A stretch of 64,000 bases of DNA from Candidatus Poribacteria bacterium (GTDB taxonomy: Bacteria > Poribacteria > WGA-4E > WGA-3G), in NCBI GenBank assembly GCA_965221425.1, contig OZ244889.1, positions 251,012-315,011 of the forward strand. The letters are read 5' to 3'. Made by a program: the position numbers and the translations under genes. Below the pieces are notes generated by a model, which searched no databases, was not told the DNA's origin, and saw only the letters and a list, made by a program, of their open reading frames with translations. Positions 25,128-60,860 of the stretch are shown here, one piece after another (the stretch's first letter is position 1; each line of letters opens with the position of its first letter).

Positions 25128-25734
25128 TAGTGACATTTAGAATTGAAAGGAACATTTTGTAGCACAACCTGTATGAAGTTTAAGTTATTAATTCGGTAAT
25201 TTGGCGAGGTTAGGAAGAAATCAACGGTATGAATGCCATTTAGGCATTCCCCGCCTCGCCAGCAGAGATGTACACCTGCTGCTGGCGAGGTTTCCTAACC
25301 TCGCTAAATTCCCCAATTTATTTATTAATCTTCATTTAGGTTGTGCAGAAACGGAACACCTTATGTGTCAATTTAAGGGATAAACCCGCTGTAGTAGTGT
25401 CTTTAGTCCCGTGAATCAACGCCAAATACGCGTTTGGTATTTGTCGGGGACGATATGTGTATCCCAACGACATATTTTCTACATATCGTCCCTACGGGAC
25501 TAAAGAACTGGGGTATCGTTTTTTATAAACATATCGTCCGTACGGGACTAAAGAGGACTAATCTCTATAATCATGCGTATTTAGAGGTGTTCACAATAAC
25601 ACAGATTTTTTCTTAAATTGACACCTATGGGTTGTGCAGAAACGGAACACAACCTAACAGGTTATGCTACAGTGTCTACGGTAGTTTCGGTTTTCTGACT
25701 GATCCTAATGTCCAATTAATTCTAAAGTTTACTA
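25128..25734. mobile_element. Composite nest: family A host containing D (25173-25335, with 36-bp E at 25217-25252) and C (25360-25629, with E-like insert 25413-25445)
   Basis: Matching terminal inverted repeats; 21-bp direct repeat GGTTGTGCAGAAACGGAACAC flanks C. Confidence 0.8.
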
Positions 25735-38912: not shown

Positions 38913-39372
38913 TAACCAAAGTTGCTACTTCTGTAGCACAATCTGTATGAAGTTTAAGTAAATATTTCGGTAATTGGCGAGGTTAGGAAGAAATCAAGAA
39001 ATCAACGGTATGAATCATGGCGAATGCCATACGCGCATTCGTCTTTAGTCATTCCCCGGGTATGAATCATGGCGAATACGCCAAATCAACGGTATGAATG
39101 CGCTTGGCAGCATGCGCGTGTGGCATGCTGCATGATTCCCCGTGTGGTATTCGCCATGATTCCCCGCCTTGCCAGCAGCAGGTGTATATCTCTGCTGGCG
39201 AGGTTTCCTAACCTCGCTAAATTACCCAATTTATTTTTTAATCTTCATTTAGATTGTGCATATTAGTCCGCAAACTAACAGTTTGCGCTACAAATATTGG
39301 CTAATTATCAGCATATTTTCATTTAAGACGGTGTTCCCGTGTCTAAAAACTTATAAGTAGCAACTTGGGTTA
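38913..39372. mobile_element. Family B element > REP hairpin > family D (38947-39248) > multiply nested E units (38990-39165)
   Basis: TTAACCAAAGTTGCTACTT/AAGTAGCAACTTGGGTTAA, with TAATTTA repeated at both junctions. Confidence 0.8.
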
Positions 39373-45009: not shown

Positions 45010-45041
45010 ATGTAATCTGTCCGTAAAATGAGACGTTTATA

Positions 45042-45470
45042 TAGTAAACCCATAATGCTTATATATTGTGGTAGGTGCGGTTTCCTAACCGCCCCGTGTC
45101 TGGATAAATGGTGCGGTTAGAAACCGCACCATAGGTGTCAATTTAAGGGGTAAATCTATTTGGCAGTGTCTTCAGTCCCGTAGGGACGATATGTTTATAG
45201 ATATGAAATGTATATATATCTTTAGTCCCGTAGGGACGATATGTGTATCCCAACGACATATTTTTTACATATCGTCCCTACGGGACTAAAGAGGCGTTGT
45301 TCAATGTTTTTCTATAAACATATCGTCCCTACGGGACTAAGATGTGGACAGTTCCAATCGTCATGCCTATTCAGAAGGGCTTTTAGAACAAGAAATATTT
45401 TCTTAAATTGACGCCTATGGTGCGGTTAGAAATCGCACCTACCAGGGTGTCCATATATTTTAGATTACGA
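45042..45470. mobile_element. A-type host with family C element (45130-45419) carrying GTCCCGTAGGGAC hairpin pairs
   Basis: CATAGGTGTCAATTTAAG/CTTAAATTGACGCCTATG flanked by 19-bp direct repeat GTGCGGTTAGAAA(C/T)CGCAC. Confidence 0.8.
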
Positions 45471-45473
45471 TAA

Positions 45474-47811
<2,338 letters not shown>

Positions 47812-47833
<22 letters not shown>

Positions 47834-48245
47834 GACACTTCTGTAGCGCAATCTGTTAGATTACGTTCTCACAGGCACAATCTAAATGAAGTTTAAATAA
47901 ATATTTCGGTAATTTGCGAGGTTAGGAAGAAATCAACGGTATGAATGCGCGTATGGCATTCCCCGCCTTGCCAGCAGCAGGTGTGTATCTCTGCTGGCGA
48001 GGTTTCCTAACCTCGCAAATTACATATCGTCCCTACCAAATCAACGCTATGAATGCGCCAAATCAACGGTGTGAATGCCATTGGGCGAATACGCCAAATC
48101 AACGGTATGAATGCGCGTATGGCATTCCCCGTATGGTATTCGCCATGATTCCCCGTATGGCATTCAGCGGGACTAAAGAGCATTTCTCATATTTGAAAAT
48201 CACTAAATGACACATAAGGTTCAGTTAGGAAATCGAACCTACCAC
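47812..48245. mobile_element. Composite: A left end, D left part (from 47886) with E (47929-47964), C-type hairpin with triple-nested E (48037-48168)
   Basis: Direct sequence comparison with other copies in the window. Confidence 0.75.
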
Positions 48246-48251
48246 TGGTAA

Positions 48252-49582: not shown

Positions 49583-49641
49583 ACTTTTTTTACCATAATT
49601 TTCAAAACGAAATTAATGAGTTATTTTTGTGTGGTAAATAC

Positions 49642-49690
49642 AAAATCAATTTGATTTTTTCTGTCAATATGTAGTATACTTATAGTATAC
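49642..49690 (+). promoter_or_regulatory. Candidate divergent promoter overlapped by two palindromes (possible operators)
   Basis: TTGATT-18 bp-TATACT; AAAATCAA-T-TTGATTTT and GTATACT-TAT-AGTATAC palindromes. Confidence 0.45.
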
Positions 49691-49797
49691 AATTATCGGA
49701 AGTTCATAGGTTGGGTAGAGCGTAAGCGAAACTTATAGATAGTTTATACCGAAAACTGACAAACGAGGTGGGATGTATTTACGCAAAGGAGTAATTT

Positions 49798-50130
49798 ATG
49801 AGTGATCGAAATAGAAATGTGAGAGTAACTTATCCAGATAGCACAGATGAAATATTAGAAATGGATGTTGTTCAAGGAGTGGAAGTATGTTTGAAGCTGC
49901 CATTTTCCGAACTACGACACTATTTAAAAGATGGCACAGTTAAAATCCAGCAAAATGTTTTTGCTCTACCAGGGTACCGTAAATTTATACGTAGTAAAGT
50001 TGCCCGGATTTCCCCTAAGGATGGTGAGTTTCCAAACAATGACGTGTCGTCAAATGACAGTAAAACATTAAACGTTGTAATGAGATGGGTACCCGGAAAA
50101 GACGATGAGTCACTGGACAATGAAGAATAA
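49798..50130 (+). CDS. Hypothetical protein
   Basis: 110-aa ORF with AAGGAG RBS. Confidence 0.65.
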   Translation: MSDRNRNVRVTYPDSTDEILEMDVVQGVEVCLKLPFSELRHYLKDGTVKIQQNVFALPGYRKFIRSKVARISPKDGEFPNNDVSSNDSKTLNVVMRWVPGKDDESLDNEE

Positions 50131-50211
50131 TTTTGGAGGAAATTTTCTAAATATTAGCACCTTATAACCCAATGAGGATTTTTCATGGAAATGGTATTTT
50201 GGAGTTGCTAG

Positions 50212-51186
50212 ATGAAATTAACAAGATACATGGATTTAAAAAAATATAAGGATTTAATATCTACACAAACGCTATTTTTCCCTCGGTGTGATAAATTTGA
50301 GGATAAGTTTGAAGGTTCTTTGGGTTTTGTTTCTCCTGACAAATTGATAGAACAACGAATACAAAAATTAGAACAAATAACCAGTATGCCTCAACAGGGA
50401 AAAACTTTGGCAATTGAATTCTTAGAAGCTTTTGAGCCGTTATTTTATAATCATTTCTTGCGAGATTTTACTTTTGTGAGCTGCTGGCATAAGAATGCTA
50501 AAGAATCATCTCTTATGTGGAAAGTGTATGCACAAAAGGGAATACAAAAGGGGATAATGGTTAAATCTGATTTATCTTCATTGAAAAATGCTTTGGGGAT
50601 CAGTGTTGACACGTATCAAAATTGTGATATATTTTGGCAAGATCATAGCCTTGATAAATCGGATGGGTATGAAATTTCACTAAAGGTTGATAAGGTTAAA
50701 TATCTTCCACTGGGCACTGAAATCCAAGCTATTGGTTTAGATCGATATTTCCATAAACAACCTGAGTACGCATCTGAAAAGGAATTGAGGGTTGTCCTTC
50801 AACTTCAGTTGGGACTTCATCAAAGACCAAACTTTCCATATCTATTCAATAATGTTCCCTTCATCCATAATCACGTGGAAATGAATGATTTAATCCTAGA
50901 ATTTTGGGAGGATATTGAGCGGACCCATGCCAAACATGCTTCAATATTGAATAGCATTTTGTCAGAACCTGGAGTACGTTGTCGTGTGGATGTTAATTCT
51001 TTGATAAAAGAAGTCGTTGTTAGTCCTTTTGGAAATGGAGGTGTGGATGTGTCAGAAATAGAATCTTTGAATCGTAAATTTAAGGTGAATGCTAAAGTTA
51101 AAAAATCTGCAATAAAAACTACTCCATCTCCAACTAAATTTCGTATAGGTCTTGGGGACGGAAAGAGTATTGAGTTCGAAATCTGA
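50212..51186 (+). CDS. DUF2971-like protein
   Basis: RYMD..K...L...LFF....FEDKFEG, VSCWH...ES..MW..Y, K...Y..EKELR. Confidence 0.7.
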   Translation: MKLTRYMDLKKYKDLISTQTLFFPRCDKFEDKFEGSLGFVSPDKLIEQRIQKLEQITSMPQQGKTLAIEFLEAFEPLFYNHFLRDFTFVSCWHKNAKESSLMWKVYAQKGIQKGIMVKSDLSSLKNALGISVDTYQNCDIFWQDHSLDKSDGYEISLKVDKVKYLPLGTEIQAIGLDRYFHKQPEYASEKELRVVLQLQLGLHQRPNFPYLFNNVPFIHNHVEMNDLILEFWEDIERTHAKHASILNSILSEPGVRCRVDVNSLIKEVVVSPFGNGGVDVSEIESLNRKFKVNAKVKKSAIKTTPSPTKFRIGLGDGKSIEFEI

Positions 51187-51197
51187 GGTTTAATTTA

Positions 51198-52922
51198 ATG
51201 AACAAACTCTACTTCGGCGACAACCTACAAATCCTACGCGAAATGGATGACGAACGCGTCCACCTAATCTGCACCGACCCACCTTTCAACAGCGGACGCG
51301 ACTACAACGCCTTTATCGGTGATTCCCTTGCACAAAAGAAAGCATTTACTGACACGTGGACATGGGACACCGCCGCACAAGACGCACGTGCCGACATTGA
51401 ATCGCGTGCCATTTCCAGCGACACATACAAAGCATTGGATACCTGCCTTAAGGGATACGACATGGTGCTGCAGAACACTGTATCTGGCAGTCAAGGTGGG
51501 ATGCGTGCATACCTTGCTTTTATGGGGCCCCGCCTTGTCGAAATGCACCGTATACTCACGAAAAAAGGTAGTGTCTATCTGCACTGCGATCCGACAGCAA
51601 GCCATTACCTAAAAGGCGTTATGGATGCGATCTTTGGCGTAGATAATTTCAGGAATGAGGTTATCTGGCAACGCACTAATGCACATAACGATGGCAAGCA
51701 ATACGGCAGGGTTCACGACACAATATTATTCTATAGCAAAAGTAGCAAAGTCGTATGGAATCCTGTCTATACAGAACACGATCCTGAGTACGTAAAGCAG
51801 CAGTATCGGCATGAAGATGAAAGAGGTCTTTACCGAATCGTCACCTTGAATGCACCAGGGATTACACAAGAAGGGGACTCTGGCAAGCCGTGGCGCGGTG
51901 TCAACCCAAGTGACGTAGGCAGGCACTGGAGTGCCCCACGCAGAGAGGCGTGGCCAGAAGGGGTTGTACCTCCTGAAAATTATGAATCTCTCTCGGTTCA
52001 CGAAAAATTAGAAGTATTAGATGCAAATGGATTAATTTATTGGCCGCCGAGAGGTAAGGTCCCAGGGTTCAAGCGGTACTTATCTACATCAAAAGGAGCC
52101 AGAGTCCACGATGTTATCACAGATATAAATCCACTTGCGAGCGCTGCTAAGGAACGCCTCGGTTATCCCACACAAAAACCACTTGCCCTCTATGAACGCA
52201 TGATAAAAGCCTCCAGCAACGAAGGCGAAATCGTGATGGATCCGTTCTGTGGATGTGGCACAACGATTGACGCCGCACACACTCTCAACCGATATTGGAT
52301 CGGTATTGACATAACAATCCTCGCATTGGACCCGATGCGCGAACGGTTGGCAGACCGACACGGATTAGAGCCTTCTGTTGACTATCAAATTGAAGGGTAT
52401 CCCACAAACATGCAGGAAGTCCGAAAGTTGTTAAAAGAAGGGGACAAACGCAAATATCACGATTTCTCGAATTGGGCAGTAACACGGCTTGGATTGAAAC
52501 CGACAAAAGACGCGGGCGATGGTGGTCTTGATGGTGTCGGGCATCTAACGTTATGGGACCCGCAACAGATGAAAGAGTCAGATTCACGTATTCTCGCCGA
52601 AGTCAAAGCTGGCAAACCTACGATAACGCAAGTACGTGCGTTCTGTCATGTCATGGATCAACACAAAGCAGAAGTCGGCATTTTTATCACTATTGAACCT
52701 GTCACTGCGAAAATGCGGCAAGAGGCACAGAATATGGGCACTTTTGAGCATAACAACAAAACCTACCCCCGCCTTCAGTTCTGGCAAATAGACGATGCGT
52801 ATTTTGAGAACCCGGATATAATCAACACTCTTGTCCGATTACCAGATGCATGGCGTATCCGTCCAACCCAAAAGTCAGAACGCCACTTTGACACCCAGCA
52901 GCTGCAATTACTACGTGGATAA
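51198..52922 (+). CDS. Beta-class N6/N4 DNA methyltransferase fused to C-terminal Mrr-like PD-(D/E)xK nuclease domain
   Basis: DPPF, YPTQKP, DPFCGCGTT; C-terminal DGGLDG...EVKAG. Confidence 0.88.
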   Translation: MNKLYFGDNLQILREMDDERVHLICTDPPFNSGRDYNAFIGDSLAQKKAFTDTWTWDTAAQDARADIESRAISSDTYKALDTCLKGYDMVLQNTVSGSQGGMRAYLAFMGPRLVEMHRILTKKGSVYLHCDPTASHYLKGVMDAIFGVDNFRNEVIWQRTNAHNDGKQYGRVHDTILFYSKSSKVVWNPVYTEHDPEYVKQQYRHEDERGLYRIVTLNAPGITQEGDSGKPWRGVNPSDVGRHWSAPRREAWPEGVVPPENYESLSVHEKLEVLDANGLIYWPPRGKVPGFKRYLSTSKGARVHDVITDINPLASAAKERLGYPTQKPLALYERMIKASSNEGEIVMDPFCGCGTTIDAAHTLNRYWIGIDITILALDPMRERLADRHGLEPSVDYQIEGYPTNMQEVRKLLKEGDKRKYHDFSNWAVTRLGLKPTKDAGDGGLDGVGHLTLWDPQQMKESDSRILAEVKAGKPTITQVRAFCHVMDQHKAEVGIFITIEPVTAKMRQEAQNMGTFEHNNKTYPRLQFWQIDDAYFENPDIINTLVRLPDAWRIRPTQKSERHFDTQQLQLLRG

Positions 52923-52956
52923 TCTTATAGTCAGGACGGACGCATTCTTCCCTTGA

Positions 52957-53118
52957 ATGAAGATTAAGAAAATATTTTGGTAATTGGCAAGGTTAGGAAA
53001 CCTTGCCAGCAGCAGGTGTACATCTCTGCTGGTGAGGCGGGGAATGCCATACGCGCATTCATACCGTTGATTTCTTCCTAACCTCGCCAAATTACCCAAT
53101 TAATAACTTAAACTTCAT
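52957..53118. mobile_element. Family D element with reverse-oriented 36-bp E unit (53039-53074)
   Basis: ATGAAGATTAA/TTAAACTTCAT TIR. Confidence 0.75.
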
Positions 53119-53142
53119 TAGGAGCGGTATGTGATCCAGCAC

Positions 53143-53214
53143 ACATAGCACTCCGCTGGAGTGCGAGAACTTGACAATCTGGCATTCTATAAACATAGCA
53201 CTCCGCTGGAGTGC
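53143..53214 (+). repeat. Direct repeat pair of REP-like hairpin ACATAGCACTCCGCTGGAGTGC
   Basis: Two identical 22-bp copies; same architecture as the ACATATCGTCCCTACGGGAC repeats. Confidence 0.7.
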
Positions 53215-53326
53215 TGCAATATATTTGGGATCAAAATTTGGATAGCCCTAATATATCGTGTTGGATTTCTTTAAATCATTGAGCCAAATTCACTTTATTG
53301 AAGTATTCTCAAACTCACGTTAAAGA

Positions 53327-53487
53327 AGCATGCGCCTGTGGCATGCTCCATGATTCATACCGTTGATTTCTTCCTAACCTTGCCACATTACCGATACATG
53401 ACAATGGCGAGGTTAGGAAACCTCGCCAGCAAGAGCGTGTCGGAATTGTTGTTCATTGAAATGTGAGCATATTTTAGGATTGGACTA
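53327..53487. mobile_element. Partial E unit, REP hairpins and A-type right end
   Basis: Right end is the reverse complement of the 29954 end and similar to 20130-20181. Confidence 0.6.
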
Positions 53488-53509
53488 TAATTTCTAACTG
53501 ATTTTATTA

Positions 53510-53538
53510 TTGACAATAATTTTAAAATTTGTTACACT
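53510..53538 (+). promoter_or_regulatory. Sigma70 promoter for the giant-protein operon
   Basis: TTGACA-17 bp-TACACT, 35 bp upstream of the ATG. Confidence 0.7.
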
Positions 53539-53573: not shown

Positions 53574-56500
53574 ATGAAAATTCGAAATTATATTATAGTC
53601 TATTTATTAGTTTTTCTGGGCTGCGTCTCATTCGGTTATGCAGCAGAAGGTGGTAAAAAATTAGGGTTGTCGGAGGCTGCAATCCAAATTCGCGATGAGA
53701 TATCTATTCGCAACATTCGGAAAGATATCGCACGTTTATCAAGTCTGGAAAGCCGCGTGACTGGCTATCCGCAAGCAGCAAACGGCAGTAAATATATTTT
53801 TGACCGTTTTGTTGATATGGGGTTAAAGAATGTTGAAAGTCGTGAATTTACTGTCACAGTCCCCGTTGATCACGGTAATAGTGCTATTGATATCCTATCC
53901 GGTGATGGCACGGTGCTACACACATTCTCACTCAAACCGTTGTGGCCGAACCTTGTCCGAACATCCCTGCTTACCGATGGCGTTAAACATACCGTTGAAG
54001 CTGGCGAAACCCTTGAAGAAATTGCAGAAAACTATGCGGTTTCCCTAACAGCCATTGCTGAAAATCCACACAACCAATATTTACCCACGCCTCTTGTGGA
54101 GGGGAACACGGTTTTCGTTCCAACTGGCGGTCTTACCGGTCCCCTATTTTACGGAGACGATGCCCAGCTTGCAGATTTCAACGGAAGTAAAGTCGGCGGC
54201 TTTTGGTACAGACTCCAAGAAGGTGATACACTGGCTTCACTGGCAAGACGTTATCGCGTTACAAAAGCGAGTATAACCGATGATGTGCTCAACGGGCATC
54301 TGCAGAAAGCCTCCGATGGCATTGATAACAATGAAGATGGCGTTATTGATGAATACGGTGAAATTCCGCTTTTATCGGAAATTCTCGGATGGGCAACAGA
54401 TGGCATTGACAATAATGCTGATGGTTGGACAGACGAAATTCCTGGTGATGCCTCCGATGGCATTGATAACAACAAAGACGGGCAGATTGACGAAACCGGT
54501 GAATTCATCGCAGCAAGCGAAGCTGATATTTTTATCCCGAAAGGCGCAATCGTTCTTACAGAATTTAACTCTGGCACCCGATGGATTAACGCTGCGATGC
54601 TTGGTGCATCTGCAGTTGTTTTTATAGAACCGGAAACAACAATTCGCGGTGAAGCAGAAAACAAATTCCTCACTGTGCCAGCAAACATCCCCCGATTTTG
54701 GATTTCTCATACAGATGCTGCCCAATTAAAAGGATTCCTTGATACAGGTGAAGAGGTCAATGTTCGCTTGCGCGGTAAAATGACTTGGGAACGGCGCGTT
54801 GGTCAAAATATTCGTGGCTTCTTAGAAGGCGGTGATCCTGTCCTACGCGATGAATTGGTCGTTGTCACCGCATACTACGATTCTATGTCTGTTGTTCCAG
54901 CAATCGCTCCCGGTGCTGACCCAACCTGTGGGATTGCTGTTCTCATGGAACTTGCACGTTTGTTCGGACAACCAGAATACCGTCCCGGTCGTTCTGTTCT
55001 ATTTGTTGCCGTTGATGCACATTTCCAAGGCTTAGCTGGGATGCGTGCGTTTATGGAAGGTATTGGACAAGATATTGTTGGCTCAGCAACCGATTCCCCA
55101 GGGACACCCACTTTGCACGGATTGAGGCGTGGATTATCTAATGATATTATCGAATTTGAGGAATTAGGACGCAAACTGTTGCTCTCCATTGATCGCAGTA
55201 TTTTGGTGGACTTAGATGCAGATTTCTACCACGGCGTTCACGGTGTAAAGGAAGACCTTAAATCACTTGCAACAACGTTGACGGGGCTTTCTACAACACG
55301 TTCTCAAATTGATTGGTTACACAGAGCACAACGCGATTTCTCAGAACGCCAGAAAAAACAGGCGGATCGCAACCGCAAACGCGAGAAACAGGGATTCACA
55401 GAGGAAGAAAAATCGAGACTAAATGCTAACCTTGTCCGCTTTGAAAAAGAAGCACTGCAAACTACGCATTTTCTCCGCCAGATCGTTGAACGACTTGCAC
55501 AGATTCAGAAATCCGCCCTGAAAACGAGTAAGGATTCCCAGCAAGAACTCATTGAAACCATTGCTCTGCCCATTGCACGGTTGGACACATGGGCAGTGGA
55601 TAGACTGATGCGAGATCTTGACTCAGGTGAGATAGCTGATCAATACGGCACGCATCCGAATGCATCATATCTGTTCCCTGTCAAGAACGGCTCCGATTAT
55701 GAAGTGCCAACGCCTGATGATCTGCCGCCAGAATTGTCCGCTGACATTGAACAGTTGAACAAGACCCTTGCCAATTGGGAGATGAGCGACTCACGGAAGT
55801 TTGCTTTAATGTGGACACCTGATAAGGTCCTTGATCGTCATTTAGATCTGCCGACTCTCAGAAAAGCGCGCGCTGCGCGAAAGACCCTCGCAAATACTAC
55901 TGAGTCCAAGGAAGATGCAATATCACGAGAGCGGGGACTTTTAGAAAAAATAAAGGAAAATCTCAAGGACACTGCTTCCATTGAAAGTCAAATTAAAGAT
56001 GCCATTACAAAATTGAGCAGTGATCGTGAGCATGATCTTCCACATGAAGTATTAACGCAATATCTAACTGAAGAATCACAAGAACGGATAAACAGAATTG
56101 ATGATCAACTCCGGCAACGTTTGACTGAAGCAGTCTCAGCGTCTGTCGCAGGCGAAGGCGGAGACGGTTCGTCCGCATCTATCCTAATTGAAGATTTGAC
56201 ACGCGATAAACAAGGTATATTTGAAATTGCGCTGCGGAATGCCCGTTTAGAACAGGCACGCATCCAGTATCTTCTTGATTTCCATGAAACCCTCACCCGT
56301 GAGTTTCTTGATGAAGAGCTATTGATTCTGAACAGTTATCTATCAGATGATGAAGTTGAACAGGTAAAAGAGGCACGCAAACATGTTGCAGCGTATCTGG
56401 TTGAGTCTGAAATCTTGCAGTCGGTCAAACAGAACGCAGCTTCGGATGTGATCGCCCTTGAAAATCTAATCAAGCAGCTCCCATCATTAACAAGGGATAT

Positions 56501-59500
56501 AGACGCACAAACAAAGGTGCTTCTCCGTGATAACATGCTCACCTTGAGGAATGCGCGATTCCGAAACATTCAAAGCAGGGTTGAGAAGATGTCACGCATA
56601 AGCGAAATAGAATATAATCGCAAGCTCACACAGATTGAAGCTGCAGTCGCGCTACAAGACCTTTTCAATCGGTATTATACATCGCTTTTCTGTAGCATAG
56701 ACCTTTCCTCTCAATCGAATCAATTCGGTGTATTTAACAAAGGTTGGTTTTATGACCAACAACCGGAATTTGTGTTACGGCGTGAGTTCGCGAGTATCGG
56801 CAATAAACTTGCATCCTATGCTGCGGATGCCGATTTTGGAGTCCGCGTGAGAAAGTTGTGGCGGGCAACGGACGATCAAATTCGCCAAGCAGTGATGGCA
56901 CGTCAGTGGTCAGTAGCAAGCCAAATCTCCGATAAAGCTGACCTTGAAGGGAAAACGCTTGAAACACTTCTCAGCGCACATTATGGGAAGCTCACAGGTT
57001 TAGGTGGGGTGAGTCGACTCATGAGGATGCAGTTTGAACAGTGGCGAAACCGAGGTGAACCGTCTGAGGATATGCTCAAAGATATGGACTATATCCGCAA
57101 GGAAGTTGAGCGGTTTATCCGAAACGATGTGCGTAACGCAAAGAAAAACCGAAAAAACAGCATCCGCATGCGCGAACAGTTAGACGCCATGCTCAGACTC
57201 CGACACGAAAACCCCGATACATTCACAGAAGATGAGATAGAGGATATCAAAACATTAATTTCAATTGTCGGACTGGGCGGCGGTTCCAACTTTGTCAATG
57301 CCATCTCTGCAAGTGGTGGAAAAACATGGAAAACCTACATTCCGGGGAAAATCGCCTTTGACAGTGAAGTGGCAACGCTTGTAGGCAAAACAGGTATCGC
57401 CTTTGCAACGATTGAAGATGCGCGCGTCCTTACCGACACACCACTTGACACGATTGATCGTGTTGACCTGCGTGAAGATGGCAATCTACATCAACAAGCA
57501 AAAACATTAGCATCTCTACTGATACAGGCACTACGGGACCCACAGATGCCTACTGCAGCACGCGTTGGGAACTTCTACTGTAACCTTTTCGGTGATGTGG
57601 TTGAATTTGATGCGCGCGAATCTGCGTTACCCAATAAACCCGTGCCATACCCGATTGTAACGCTTCGTCGTAGACATAAAACCATGATGGGGGTCCGCGG
57701 TGATCTGTTTGCCATGGGAGATAATAAAGGCAATTTTGAAGTTGCAGGCTTGGCAATGGAAGGCAGGGCAACGCGCAGGCTTGGTGGTGCACAGGAAGTT
57801 GAGGCATACATCCTTGACCCCGATTCTGGGGATATTGTCTACGCTCCCGATTTGGGAAATTACGGTGCTAAATTGCTACCGAATAAAGTGCCGATTAACA
57901 CACGGCGACGCGGATGCCGAGTTGTTACCTTCCCGTGTGTATCCACAACTATCTATGACTTGGTTGACCAACGCTATCTCCGCACCTTACGCGAATTAGA
58001 GGTATATGATGCGCTGTCCGATAGCCCACCTGAAAAATTCGGTGTGTCTAAACCGTGGCAACAGGAGGGTGTTTCTGCCGCTGAACCTATCGCACTTGTC
58101 TATAGCGAACCGCAAAGCCGTATAAAAATCGGAATGGCGTACGGGCAAATCGGTAAACGTCTACTCCTGATTAAAGCGACCAAAAGTGGTATGAAAAACC
58201 CAACGCTTTACACTGGCGAAGGGTTTGTTGTGCGAGAAAACGGCAGTATCCGTCTTACGCCTTATGTGGTTGTGCGCGATATGTGGTGGCTTGATGAAAA
58301 CCGATCTCGCCTTTACAAACGGTTCGGTATTTCAAGTGATCGACTCGACAAACTACACCAATTTGCAAATGAATATCTCTCACGAGCAGAAACGGCGCTT
58401 TTCCAAAACGATTATCAACAAGCACTCAAGTTGGCGCGCGCTGCATGGGGATACGAATCACGCGCATATCCAGATGTTAAAAGAACAGGCAACGATGTCG
58501 TTAACGGTATTATGTTCTATCTTGCGCTTCTGATGCCGTTTGCTTACTTTATGGAACGACTCATCTTCGGTTTCCCGAACATTCACAAACAGATTTTAGC
58601 CACTTTCGGTATTTTCCTCCTCGTCTTTTACTTCTTAAGTCAAGTGCATCCAGCGTTCCAAATAACAACAACACCTATAATAATTTTAATAGCCTTCGTT
58701 GTGCTTGCGTTGACGGTGCTTGTCATCAGTATTATTGTTAGGAAATTTGAGGAACAACTTGAAAAGATTCGTCAACAAGGCAATAAGGTGTATAAGGCGG
58801 ATGTCGGTAGGTTAAGCGCAAGTGCTGCAGCATTTAGTCTCGGTATCTCCAATATGCGGAAACGGAAAGGACGGACCATTCTGACCTGCGCAACACTTGT
58901 TATCCTTACGTTCACTGTTATTTCGTTTACATCGGTGCGGACATTTATGCGTCCGAATCGAACCAGTTTGCCACAGGTTACACCGCGTTATACTGGCTTG
59001 CTCATCCGAGACCAGTATTGGCGCCCGCTTGAAGAACCTGTCCTTAACTCAATTCTGAACGACATGCAGAAGACGCAAGTTACTGTAGACGATTTAGAAC
59101 GACTTCTGGAACAGAAAAACCTACTCCTGGCTAAGCGAGGCCAAACACCGCTGGATATACCTGCAGCAATAGCAGGATTACAGGAAAATGGGTTTATCAC
59201 AAACATTGATGAGGAACCAGTTCTTGCCGTTCGAAATGTTGTTGCCCCACGCGCATGGTATCAGTCTTCAGGAACAGGCGACCAATCTTTTGTTCAATTG
59301 ACGCGAAGTCCAAACCCGCAAGACCCAGTACCGCCGACACATCCACTCACAGGTGAAGCGTTGCGTTTCGCCGCAAACATGCTTGTCGGCATGAGTGAGA
59401 CAGAGCCTGCAGTCACCGGTATTGATCGCTACCTCCAATACGGAAAATGGTTTAACCGTGCTGATGCCGACAGTTGGCCAACCGAGTGGCCTTACGCTAT

Positions 59501-60860
59501 CATTCTGCCGAAAGGGATGGCAGATCTCCTGAAACTAACCGAAAGTGATATGGGGAAAGCCACAATCTCTGTATACGGTGCTGATTTCACCGTCGTCGGT
59601 GTTTTGGGAATAGGATTCAAGGATTTGACCGATAACGATGGCGAAGAAATGACACCTGTTGACTATCAATTAATGCAACAGCAACAAAGTCGCGGTGGCA
59701 CAGGCGATGAAACGCTTGAAGGGGAATTACAAAAATATCTCCATCTCACGCCAGATAGCATTGCCGTTTTACCTTATGAAGTTGTGATGAACCAAGGTGG
59801 AACGCTGAGAAGCGTTGCAGTCAACATGGAACCTCAAGAAGACGATCCGAAACTATTAGGCGCAATTGATAAACTTGATCTCATCATGGCGCCACTGATG
59901 AACCGCATTGCGCTTGACTTCTTTGTTGGTCGTGACAAAGATACCTACCTTTATAGCAGTATCGGTATGACAAGTTTTAGCGGGATGGGTAACCTGTTCG
60001 TGCCAATCCTGATTGCTGCGTTGATTGTTTTGAATACGATGCTCGGTGCGGTTTATGAACGTGTGCGTGAAATCAGTATCTACAGTTCCGTAGGACTTGC
60101 TCCTATTCATATCGCTTTCCTCTTCCTTGCCGAAGCGTGCGTATATGCGATTGTTGGGGCTGTTTTGGGTTATCTGATGGGACAAGTGATCGCAACAACG
60201 TTGGTGCATTTCGGTTGGCTTGCTGGCTTAACGCTCAACTATTCTTCAATGTCTACAGTTGTAGCAACGGTTGTTGTGATGATTGTAGTGCTGCTTAGCA
60301 CGCTGTACCCTGCTATTAAAGCCTCGCGCATGGCAGTGCCAGATATTGAACGGAAATGGAAATTGCCTGAACCTGAAGGCGATGTGTGGCATTTCAATCT
60401 GCCTTTTACCGTTTTAGCAGAAGAAGCACTCGGTTTGAACGTCTTTATGCGCGATTATTTTGATGCACATGCTGATGAGTCTGCCAGCGATTTCTACACG
60501 GATAATGTTACTTTCAGCACAAAACCCGAAGAGGATTCTTACGAGATCGGGATGATGGTCTGGTTAGCACCTTACGATTTGGGCGTAAGTCAATCTATCC
60601 AGTTTATCACCTCGCCCGTTGGCGGAGAAGAGGAAGACTTATACAAAATCACGTTAGATGTGAACCGCGAAAGTGGTGAGATCGCTTCTTGGAAACGGGT
60701 TAATCGTCGTTTTCTCAATCTGTTGCGAAAGCAGCTGCTGATATGGCGAACCTTCAGCGTTGATGTTCGCTCAGAATTCCATGAACGTGGCAGAACCGAA
60801 AGCACGGATACGGAGGAAGGCGCTGCACGATTAGATCCCGTCGTAGCACCAGCTGATTAA
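53574..60860 (+). CDS. 2428-aa membrane protein: signal peptide, 2 LysM-like repeats, DGIDNNxDG repeats, degenerate M28 peptidase, helical insert, FtsX/MacB-like permease C-terminus
   Basis: HTVEAGETLEEIA and YRLQEGDTLASLARRY; AYYDS/GADP/ELAR; NMRKRKGRT and ERVREISIYSSVGLAP...FLAEA FtsX motifs. Confidence 0.8.
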   Translation: MKIRNYIIVYLLVFLGCVSFGYAAEGGKKLGLSEAAIQIRDEISIRNIRKDIARLSSLESRVTGYPQAANGSKYIFDRFVDMGLKNVESREFTVTVPVDHGNSAIDILSGDGTVLHTFSLKPLWPNLVRTSLLTDGVKHTVEAGETLEEIAENYAVSLTAIAENPHNQYLPTPLVEGNTVFVPTGGLTGPLFYGDDAQLADFNGSKVGGFWYRLQEGDTLASLARRYRVTKASITDDVLNGHLQKASDGIDNNEDGVIDEYGEIPLLSEILGWATDGIDNNADGWTDEIPGDASDGIDNNKDGQIDETGEFIAASEADIFIPKGAIVLTEFNSGTRWINAAMLGASAVVFIEPETTIRGEAENKFLTVPANIPRFWISHTDAAQLKGFLDTGEEVNVRLRGKMTWERRVGQNIRGFLEGGDPVLRDELVVVTAYYDSMSVVPAIAPGADPTCGIAVLMELARLFGQPEYRPGRSVLFVAVDAHFQGLAGMRAFMEGIGQDIVGSATDSPGTPTLHGLRRGLSNDIIEFEELGRKLLLSIDRSILVDLDADFYHGVHGVKEDLKSLATTLTGLSTTRSQIDWLHRAQRDFSERQKKQADRNRKREKQGFTEEEKSRLNANLVRFEKEALQTTHFLRQIVERLAQIQKSALKTSKDSQQELIETIALPIARLDTWAVDRLMRDLDSGEIADQYGTHPNASYLFPVKNGSDYEVPTPDDLPPELSADIEQLNKTLANWEMSDSRKFALMWTPDKVLDRHLDLPTLRKARAARKTLANTTESKEDAISRERGLLEKIKENLKDTASIESQIKDAITKLSSDREHDLPHEVLTQYLTEESQERINRIDDQLRQRLTEAVSASVAGEGGDGSSASILIEDLTRDKQGIFEIALRNARLEQARIQYLLDFHETLTREFLDEELLILNSYLSDDEVEQVKEARKHVAAYLVESEILQSVKQNAASDVIALENLIKQLPSLTRDIDAQTKVLLRDNMLTLRNARFRNIQSRVEKMSRISEIEYNRKLTQIEAAVALQDLFNRYYTSLFCSIDLSSQSNQFGVFNKGWFYDQQPEFVLRREFASIGNKLASYAADADFGVRVRKLWRATDDQIRQAVMARQWSVASQISDKADLEGKTLETLLSAHYGKLTGLGGVSRLMRMQFEQWRNRGEPSEDMLKDMDYIRKEVERFIRNDVRNAKKNRKNSIRMREQLDAMLRLRHENPDTFTEDEIEDIKTLISIVGLGGGSNFVNAISASGGKTWKTYIPGKIAFDSEVATLVGKTGIAFATIEDARVLTDTPLDTIDRVDLREDGNLHQQAKTLASLLIQALRDPQMPTAARVGNFYCNLFGDVVEFDARESALPNKPVPYPIVTLRRRHKTMMGVRGDLFAMGDNKGNFEVAGLAMEGRATRRLGGAQEVEAYILDPDSGDIVYAPDLGNYGAKLLPNKVPINTRRRGCRVVTFPCVSTTIYDLVDQRYLRTLRELEVYDALSDSPPEKFGVSKPWQQEGVSAAEPIALVYSEPQSRIKIGMAYGQIGKRLLLIKATKSGMKNPTLYTGEGFVVRENGSIRLTPYVVVRDMWWLDENRSRLYKRFGISSDRLDKLHQFANEYLSRAETALFQNDYQQALKLARAAWGYESRAYPDVKRTGNDVVNGIMFYLALLMPFAYFMERLIFGFPNIHKQILATFGIFLLVFYFLSQVHPAFQITTTPIIILIAFVVLALTVLVISIIVRKFEEQLEKIRQQGNKVYKADVGRLSASAAAFSLGISNMRKRKGRTILTCATLVILTFTVISFTSVRTFMRPNRTSLPQVTPRYTGLLIRDQYWRPLEEPVLNSILNDMQKTQVTVDDLERLLEQKNLLLAKRGQTPLDIPAAIAGLQENGFITNIDEEPVLAVRNVVAPRAWYQSSGTGDQSFVQLTRSPNPQDPVPPTHPLTGEALRFAANMLVGMSETEPAVTGIDRYLQYGKWFNRADADSWPTEWPYAIILPKGMADLLKLTESDMGKATISVYGADFTVVGVLGIGFKDLTDNDGEEMTPVDYQLMQQQQSRGGTGDETLEGELQKYLHLTPDSIAVLPYEVVMNQGGTLRSVAVNMEPQEDDPKLLGAIDKLDLIMAPLMNRIALDFFVGRDKDTYLYSSIGMTSFSGMGNLFVPILIAALIVLNTMLGAVYERVREISIYSSVGLAPIHIAFLFLAEACVYAIVGAVLGYLMGQVIATTLVHFGWLAGLTLNYSSMSTVVATVVVMIVVLLSTLYPAIKASRMAVPDIERKWKLPEPEGDVWHFNLPFTVLAEEALGLNVFMRDYFDAHADESASDFYTDNVTFSTKPEEDSYEIGMMVWLAPYDLGVSQSIQFITSPVGGEEEDLYKITLDVNRESGEIASWKRVNRRFLNLLRKQLLIWRTFSVDVRSEFHERGRTESTDTEEGAARLDPVVAPAD

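Follow-up and report, generated by a model that had tools for sequence, protein, structure and literature searches.

The stretch of DNA analysed here (the window) is 64 kb long and comes from the genome of a sponge symbiont, Candidatus Poribacteria. This genome, designated G000, is 5.24 Mb in size, consists of one contig and was parsed whole. At positions 47812-48248 of the window a 437-bp block of repeats occupies the intergenic space between a nucleotidyltransferase gene and an M78-peptidase-like gene. The whole block is absent from four relatives (L002, L003, L006 and L008; the L-numbered loci are ligA relatives), in which the flanking genes are 10-20 bp apart. In L004, L005 and L009 about 400 bp of coding-looking sequence is found in its place. 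The closest relative, G014 (L001 at this locus), is about 92-97% identical here. The ligA match is ~690 bp longer in L001 (3001-5692) and ~830 bp longer in L021 (3001-5832) than in the other relatives, and has an insertion-like appearance.

The most complex part of the block is a nest of three small repeats, called units below, that are inserted into each other. Base-for-base reading of positions 48037-48168 gives a 36-nt unit within a 60-nt unit, which is itself within a 36-nt unit, and the host of the entire nest is a hairpin of the GTCCCTAC/GGGAC type (Table 1). A recursive-excision script, which repeatedly cuts out the smallest complete unit, arrived at identical levels with identical coordinates. 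The three-level self-nesting of the preliminary description, with restoration of each host on removal of its insert, was thus confirmed base for base by the two procedures. The outer unit, when freed of its insert, is identical to a unit that is present uninterrupted three times in the genome. The middle unit, which is inserted at GCGC^GTATGG of the outer unit's loop, differs by one mismatch from an uninterrupted 60-nt unit. The inner unit represents the second most common exact variant, with 43 copies genome-wide. The intact host hairpin, GTCCCTACGGGAC, is present at 45274 and 45325, where it had been placed earlier, and at three further sites: 25488, 45175 and 45225 (the last two on the minus strand). 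Folding of the whole nest as DNA gives a z score of -1.68, and 15 of 200 shuffled sequences fold equally well. In Logan contigs from four runs the unique flanks end at ~47902 and restart at 48172, and no contig spans the nest. The many 'joints' in these contigs stem from other repeat copies or other strains, and the contigs are silent on both the nest and empty alleles.

Table 1. Units and parts of their host hairpins in the 64-kb window.
Feature	Position	Strand	Remarks
Host REP-type hairpin, 5' half (ACATATCGTCCCTAC)	48022..48036	+	split by the nest
Host hairpin, 5' arm (GTCCCTAC)	48029-48036	+	direct sequence reading
Triple nest, outer level: 36-nt unit, ...TTCAGC tail subfamily	48037..48168	+	halves 48037-48058 (22 nt) and 48155-48168 (14 nt)
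Triple nest, middle level: 60-nt unit	48059..48154	+	halves 48059-48094 (36 nt) and 48131-48154 (24 nt)
Triple nest, inner level: intact 36-nt unit	48095..48130	+	inserted at ACGC^GTATGG, the loop of the middle unit
Host hairpin, 3' arm (GGGAC)	48169-48173	+	
Host REP-type hairpin, 3' half (GGGACTAAAGAG)	48169..48180	+	
Single 36-nt unit, inner-hairpin loop of a MITE-like repeat	47929..47964	+	arms 47909-47928 and 48004-48023
Single 36-nt unit at the same position of another MITE-like repeat	53039..53074	-	
Single 36-nt unit, loop variant ATTTA, at the same MITE-like-repeat position	25217..25252	+	
33-nt variant: GAATCAACG head, different stem, loop GCGTTTG	25413..25445	+	within a GTCCC-type hairpin, its other strand
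Second nest: 56-nt unit in a MITE loop	38990..39165	+	recursive parse

The single copies that had been reported elsewhere in the window (25217, 47929, 53039 in reverse and the 33-bp variant at 25413) are all real, and that at 25217 turned out to be a loop variant. The 35-nt core of the unit is found exactly at 47930, 48096 and 53039 (minus strand), compared to no match in 100 shuffles. For AAATCAACG the count in the window is 11, while shuffled sequences have 1.28 on average. Variants resembling the 33-nt unit are present in L007, G021 and G014. The second nest holds 60-nt units at both the head site (38998-39057) and the loop site (39082-39141) of its 56-nt unit. An Rfam search of the window returned no family at the gathering score.

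The surroundings of these copies are themselves variable. A composite repeat of ~335 bp with four GTCCC-type hairpins lies at 45040-45472; it has at least six other copies in the genome at 95-98% identity, and the orthologous site in G014 measures only 18 bp. G014 lacks the stretch 49603-53500 and has ~760 bp of other repeats in its place; in the window this stretch encodes a 574-aa fusion of a DNA methylase with an Mrr-like nuclease domain (51198-52922). A 2428-aa open reading frame occupies positions 53574-60860.

The recursive parse of the genome found 392 units, of which 339 are simple, 50 contain one insert and three are triple nests; their outermost sites number 332. Counted with the base before the head, most units are 36 nt (n=200), 60 nt (n=112) or 35 nt (n=51) long, and smaller classes measure 56 nt (n=14) and 46 nt (n=8). 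The head AAATCAACGGTAT, a GAAT...ATTC stem foot and a CCCC tail are common to all of them, while the interior is variable; a minor subfamily ends in AGC instead of CCCC. The 241 simple units comprise 43 sequence variants. Changes in the stem are paired, as in GAATGCC/GGCATTC, GAATGAC/GTCATTC, GAATGCT/AGCATTC and GAACGCC/GGCGTTC. At stem position 19/27 the C-G pair is replaced by A-T in 25 copies, and other subfamilies have T-A or C-G swaps elsewhere. A further 13 copies, left unparsed, carry GTAG where the main family has GTAT.

The base 3' of the unit is G in 238 of the 241 simple units, in line with the G that had been noticed after each insert. Folding as DNA pairs this G with the C of CGG in the head, and the foot of the hairpin therefore is CGG...CCG. 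The base 5' of AAATC, previously given as C or G, is one of these two in the majority of the simple units (G in 110 and C in 98), and is T in 25 and A in eight. The tail is not an inverted copy of the head; the unit lacks terminal inverted repeats and no target duplication beyond 1 nt was seen, both as originally proposed. When single units are folded as DNA, the expected hairpin is obtained; the unit with an ATTTA loop stands out with a z score of -4.33, and that with a GCGTATG loop has a z score of -0.84.

Almost all units are intergenic. Open frames of at least 200 codons make up 81% of the genome and contain six of the 392 units. The 17-nt head is present in 404 copies in G000 and in all 24 of the sampled congeners, with 1 to 246 copies each, and was found in none of 16 genomes from other genera of the same order. 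Among viral contigs 21 match the 17-nt head, none of them (0/21) with the hairpin and tail, and these matches are chance hits in coding sequence. Head islands number 515, including 412 with a single head, 50 direct pairs, 33 +- pairs and two -+ pairs. Long palindromic forms with the head on both arms were seen in three copies in G000. A headless perfect palindrome of the hairpin, with GGGG...CCCC arms, lies inside a GTAG-type palindrome in G021, in the stretch compared with window positions 49590-53510. In G023, 13 listed units with the species-specific loop ATCAA are located within ~110 kb (G023:C1:4358268-4464943).

The flanks of the units were clustered with a criterion stricter than single linkage at 8/24 mismatches, which chains nearly everything. 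They fall into 45 context groups, nearly all of them at or beside the tip of a hairpin, and the unit ends are constant throughout. The loop of the inner hairpin of the MITE-like repeat is the largest of the contexts, with 121 units of 43 distinct sequences. It is followed by the loop CGC^GTRTGG, which belongs to the unit itself and to related hairpins (114 units, 33 distinct sequences), and by the unit's own head, AAATCAA^ (33 units, seven distinct sequences). Smaller groups include GTCCC, GGCAC and other small hairpins. At the CGC^GTRTGG loop the units are inserted on that strand in 111 cases and on the opposite strand in none. The ACATATCGTCCCTAC motif of the host hairpin stands uninterrupted ~200 times in the genome.

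The commonest junction over distinct contexts consists of YRC, then C and the unit, then G; the units, their context groups and this junction are the outcome of the genome-wide search that had been suggested along with the preliminary description. The 5' flanks end in CGC, CAC, TAC, GAA, CAA, CCA or TAG, the sole constant being the G on the 3' side, and comparison of the flanks of the 45 groups revealed no conserved target of 4-5 nt on the 5' side. The base before the head follows the context: it is C where a C precedes it, and G or T where an A does. Three kinds of site, namely the MITE loop, the head site and the GTAG in REP hairpins, have G-unit-G in place of a single target base (A or C). 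The junction is that of a clean insertion at some sites, not at all of them. No unit lies in unique DNA, as none of the 392 has both of its 11-nt flanks at two copies or fewer.

The hosts at the loop site are restored when the insert is removed: 17 of 28 become identical to an uninterrupted unit found elsewhere, and eight more differ from one by a single base. At the head site none of 25 hosts is restored exactly. A 96-nt composite, built like positions 48059-48154 from a 60-nt unit with a 36-nt insert, recurs with the same ends in four unrelated contexts. It follows that a whole nest is able to move or be copied in one go, and that the ends of the unit matter and its content does not. Comparison with G014 gave three informative pairs of filled and empty orthologous sites. 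Two MITE loops, at 47929 of the window and at G000 502859, are filled in G000 and empty in this closest relative (L001 at the former locus), and the reverse holds for one orthologous site, which has a unit in G014 but not in G000. The unit thus has discrete ends, fixed insertion points, strict orientation, restorable hosts, filled and empty orthologous sites and a composite that recurs. The preliminary description of a discrete, very small, hairpin-targeting and self-nesting module is supported in this respect, and the module behaves as mobile DNA.

What moves the unit is a separate matter. The HUH/Y1 mobiliser of the IS200/IS605 type that had been put forward is unproven. G000 has one Y1 gene, a RAYT at 315327-315815, just past the end of the window. 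It is flanked in the textbook arrangement by inverted REPs, but these are of another type, GGTAGGTTCGG..., which has ~130 copies. The RAYT with its two flanking REPs (G000 315178-315943) was also found in G002 at 93% identity. A TnpA or RAYT gene flanked by the unit, which had been expected, was found neither at this gene nor among 20 Y1 loci from relatives, none of which has the unit on both sides. Of 40 genomes, 22 have a RAYT homologue. None was found in the closest relative G014, which has 232 heads, or in G001, G023, G010, G013 and G020, and the syntenic RAYT site in G014 is occupied by 317 bp of unrelated sequence. The Y1 Pfam model had no match in G001 (four contigs), G023 (a single contig) and G010, which contain 96, 131 and 109 heads, respectively. 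Heads in the C context number 104 in G014, 83 in G001, 41 in G023, 32 in G010 and 48 in G020, all of them genomes without a RAYT match.

It is nevertheless conceivable, if doubtful, that a Y1 HUH transposase of the IS200/IS605 or RAYT type moves the unit via single-stranded DNA. Such an enzyme would cut on both sides of the single hairpin and paste the unit into exposed hairpin loops. This would agree with unit ends that are asymmetric around one hairpin, with the lack of inverted terminal repeats and of longer duplications, with a hairpin kept by paired stem changes and with the 111:0 orientation. The unit and the RAYT-flanking REPs also have CGGTA(T/G)G directly before the stem in common, and the GTAG variant of the unit points in the same direction. 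Furthermore, relatives have Y1 genes whose REPs are host hairpins of the unit: the GTCCC hairpin is the REP that flanks an IS200-like TnpA gene in G006 and G014, a gene that is absent from G000. More units are found where a RAYT homologue is present, the median number of C-context heads being 43.5 with a homologue (E <= 1e-30) and 13.5 without. These medians were computed by hand for genomes that are related to each other, and the relationship is only a tendency.

Against such an enzyme stand the missing Y1 gene with flanking units, the failure to find Y1 or RAYT genes in the unit-rich G001, G023, G010, G014 and G013, and the 5' flank devoid of a conserved 4-5-nt target. The split of the units between the replichores, 216:176, is a weak bias, read with an uncertain origin and terminus due to the weak GC skew and blurred by hitch-hiking. 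A target like the TTGAT of ISDra2, hinted at by the reverse of ATCAA in the head, was considered and rejected. Insertions at the head site fall at AAATCAA^; read on the opposite strand, this places them 5' of TTGAT and not 3' of it, and thus on the wrong side of the motif.

A different explanation, which we regard as unlikely, is that the unit by itself is not mobile today. Transposing carriers, the IS630-type MITE and the REPs, would have amplified a small number of old insertions, while gene conversion and recombination at the shared head, loop and tail would shuffle units between the copies. Hitch-hiking predicts that unit variants are tied to particular contexts, and this is often the case: the 16/16 units of one head-site context have one and the same loop variant, and the 9/9 units of one loop context have another. 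Both pairs of filled and empty MITE loops show greater divergence in the repeat core beside the unit than in the outer flanks, so that a tract of gene conversion from another filled copy may have brought the unit along. The 46-nt units are 36-nt 5' halves joined to 60-nt 3' halves at the loop site. Two orthologous sites carry different units in G000 and G014, 36 nt versus 60 nt at one and 61 nt versus a larger composite at the other. Together with the context-tied variants and the diverged cores, these joins and exchanges make it clear that hitch-hiking and recombination add to the spread. The absence of units from unique DNA and the occurrence of species-specific loop variants in genomes without Y1 genes also agree with this explanation. 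It does not, however, readily account for exactly the same unit ends in 45 context groups, for one 96-nt composite in four unrelated contexts or for the 17 loop hosts that are restored exactly. Nor does it account for the number of distinct units, 43 at a single position of the MITE and 33 at the loop site, and the heads and tails, at 7-17 nt, are short for conversion.

Slippage or palindrome-templated duplication, with no element involved at all, is very improbable: the sequences are rich in palindromes and some 60-nt units contain flipped hairpin cores, but the same 36- or 60-nt inserts occur in unrelated places and are not copies of neighbouring sequence, tandem head-to-tail copies of the unit are absent from G000, and the levels of the nest at 48037-48168 differ from each other in sequence.

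We therefore favour, with moderate confidence, a description of the unit as a non-coding, non-autonomous, REP-like mobile DNA module that seeks out hairpin tips and that spreads also by hitch-hiking and, probably, gene conversion. The unit would consist of a single-stranded 5' tail of 8-9 nt (N-AAATCAA), followed by a hairpin with a CGG...CCG foot. The hairpin would run through GTAT, a GAAT-type stem, the loop, the return stem and CCCC, and close on the next G. A protein supplied in trans would move the whole unit, presumably by way of a single-stranded hairpin intermediate. Versions of 36, 60 and 96 nt would all move because this protein reads the foot and the two ends and not the interior. 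The unit would integrate into the tip of another DNA hairpin, always in the same orientation and either at a C^G step or beside a G. As its own loop carries such a step (CGC^GTATGG), it would land in itself and nests would build up. Once inside a larger repeat, whether a REP or an IS630-type MITE, it would be copied along and exchanged between copies by gene conversion.

As to the protein, a RAYT-like Y1 HUH enzyme is our best single guess, a tentative one. Somewhat less probable as the mover of the module is a protein of an unrecognised kind, or a DNA-repair activity of the host, which would open hairpin tips and join the hairpin-footed fragment to them. If the mover were of this non-Y1 kind, no smaller mobile DNA with a cargo would be known than the unit (36 nt, with nested passengers of up to 60 nt or more), and 'hairpin-tip integration' would be a target rule common to unrelated elements of these sponge symbionts.

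A unit so small and with a defined target provides a handle on the question of how short palindromic repeats spread in bacteria, which is open for REPs and for the SDRs of cyanobacteria. It offers a clear recognition unit, composed of the hairpin foot and two short ends, and a clear target, namely the C^G of a hairpin tip, used on a single strand. The nests record the order of events and thus have a read-out built into them. Much of what distinguishes the intergenic regions of close relatives within the Poribacteria also consists of these units, and they are points at which short-read assemblies break.

A literature search found no paper on such repeats in Poribacteria. The family had been called possibly undescribed. 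This holds for the family itself, which was not found in the searchable literature and is new, but not for the kind of element, which is known. The depth of self-nesting and the composites that move are unusual. The nearest kind are the REP, BIME and REPIN sequences with their RAYT, a Y1 HUH protein (Bertels & Rainey 2011, PMC3116915; Di Nocera et al. 2013, PMC3733652), and some REP families are described in the latter as sitting regularly inside other palindromes. As far as these descriptions go, the unit resembles a REP in being an imperfect palindrome of 20-40 nt with hundreds of extragenic copies, whose number varies between species, and in having a short conserved tag 5' of the stem, in a genome that also contains a RAYT with REPs of its own. 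Measured against the same descriptions, it differs in its tag, which is GTAT and not GTAG (or CGTC) in all but 13 copies, and in its extra 9-nt head and CCCC tail. The units are mostly single and seem not to be arranged in doublets, they do not flank the RAYT and are present where no RAYT was found, and they insert into their own loop, up to three deep.

The SDRs of the Nostocaceae (Elhai et al. 2008) are very small repeats thought to be mobile, according to papers that cite them (PMC5861425, PMC4390886, PMC2884548), and SDR5 is stated to insert precisely between the third and fourth base of the HIP1 palindrome (PMC4390886). By these descriptions, SDRs and the unit are alike in their very small size, their supposed mobility and their precise insertion at a palindromic site. 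On the same basis, the unit differs in its host phylum, Poribacteria, in its length of 35-36 nt or more and in its target, which is a hairpin tip; HIP1 is rare in G000, with 35 copies. SDRs reportedly measure ~21-27 nt, and we know of no enzyme that acts on them.

With IS200/IS605 elements and their gene-less derivatives the unit shares the lack of inverted terminal repeats and of target duplication, the reliance on hairpins and the oriented insertion. However, it has one hairpin and not distinct left and right ones, it lacks both a conserved 4-5-nt target on its 5' side and a cognate gene, its strand bias is weak, and its size is at most about one third of theirs. Terminal inverted repeats and a TA duplication are found in classical MITEs, among them the IS630-type MITE in which many of the units reside, but not in the 36-nt unit. 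Like these MITEs, the unit is nevertheless non-autonomous, intergenic and amplified and, in this genome, is also found at hairpin tips.
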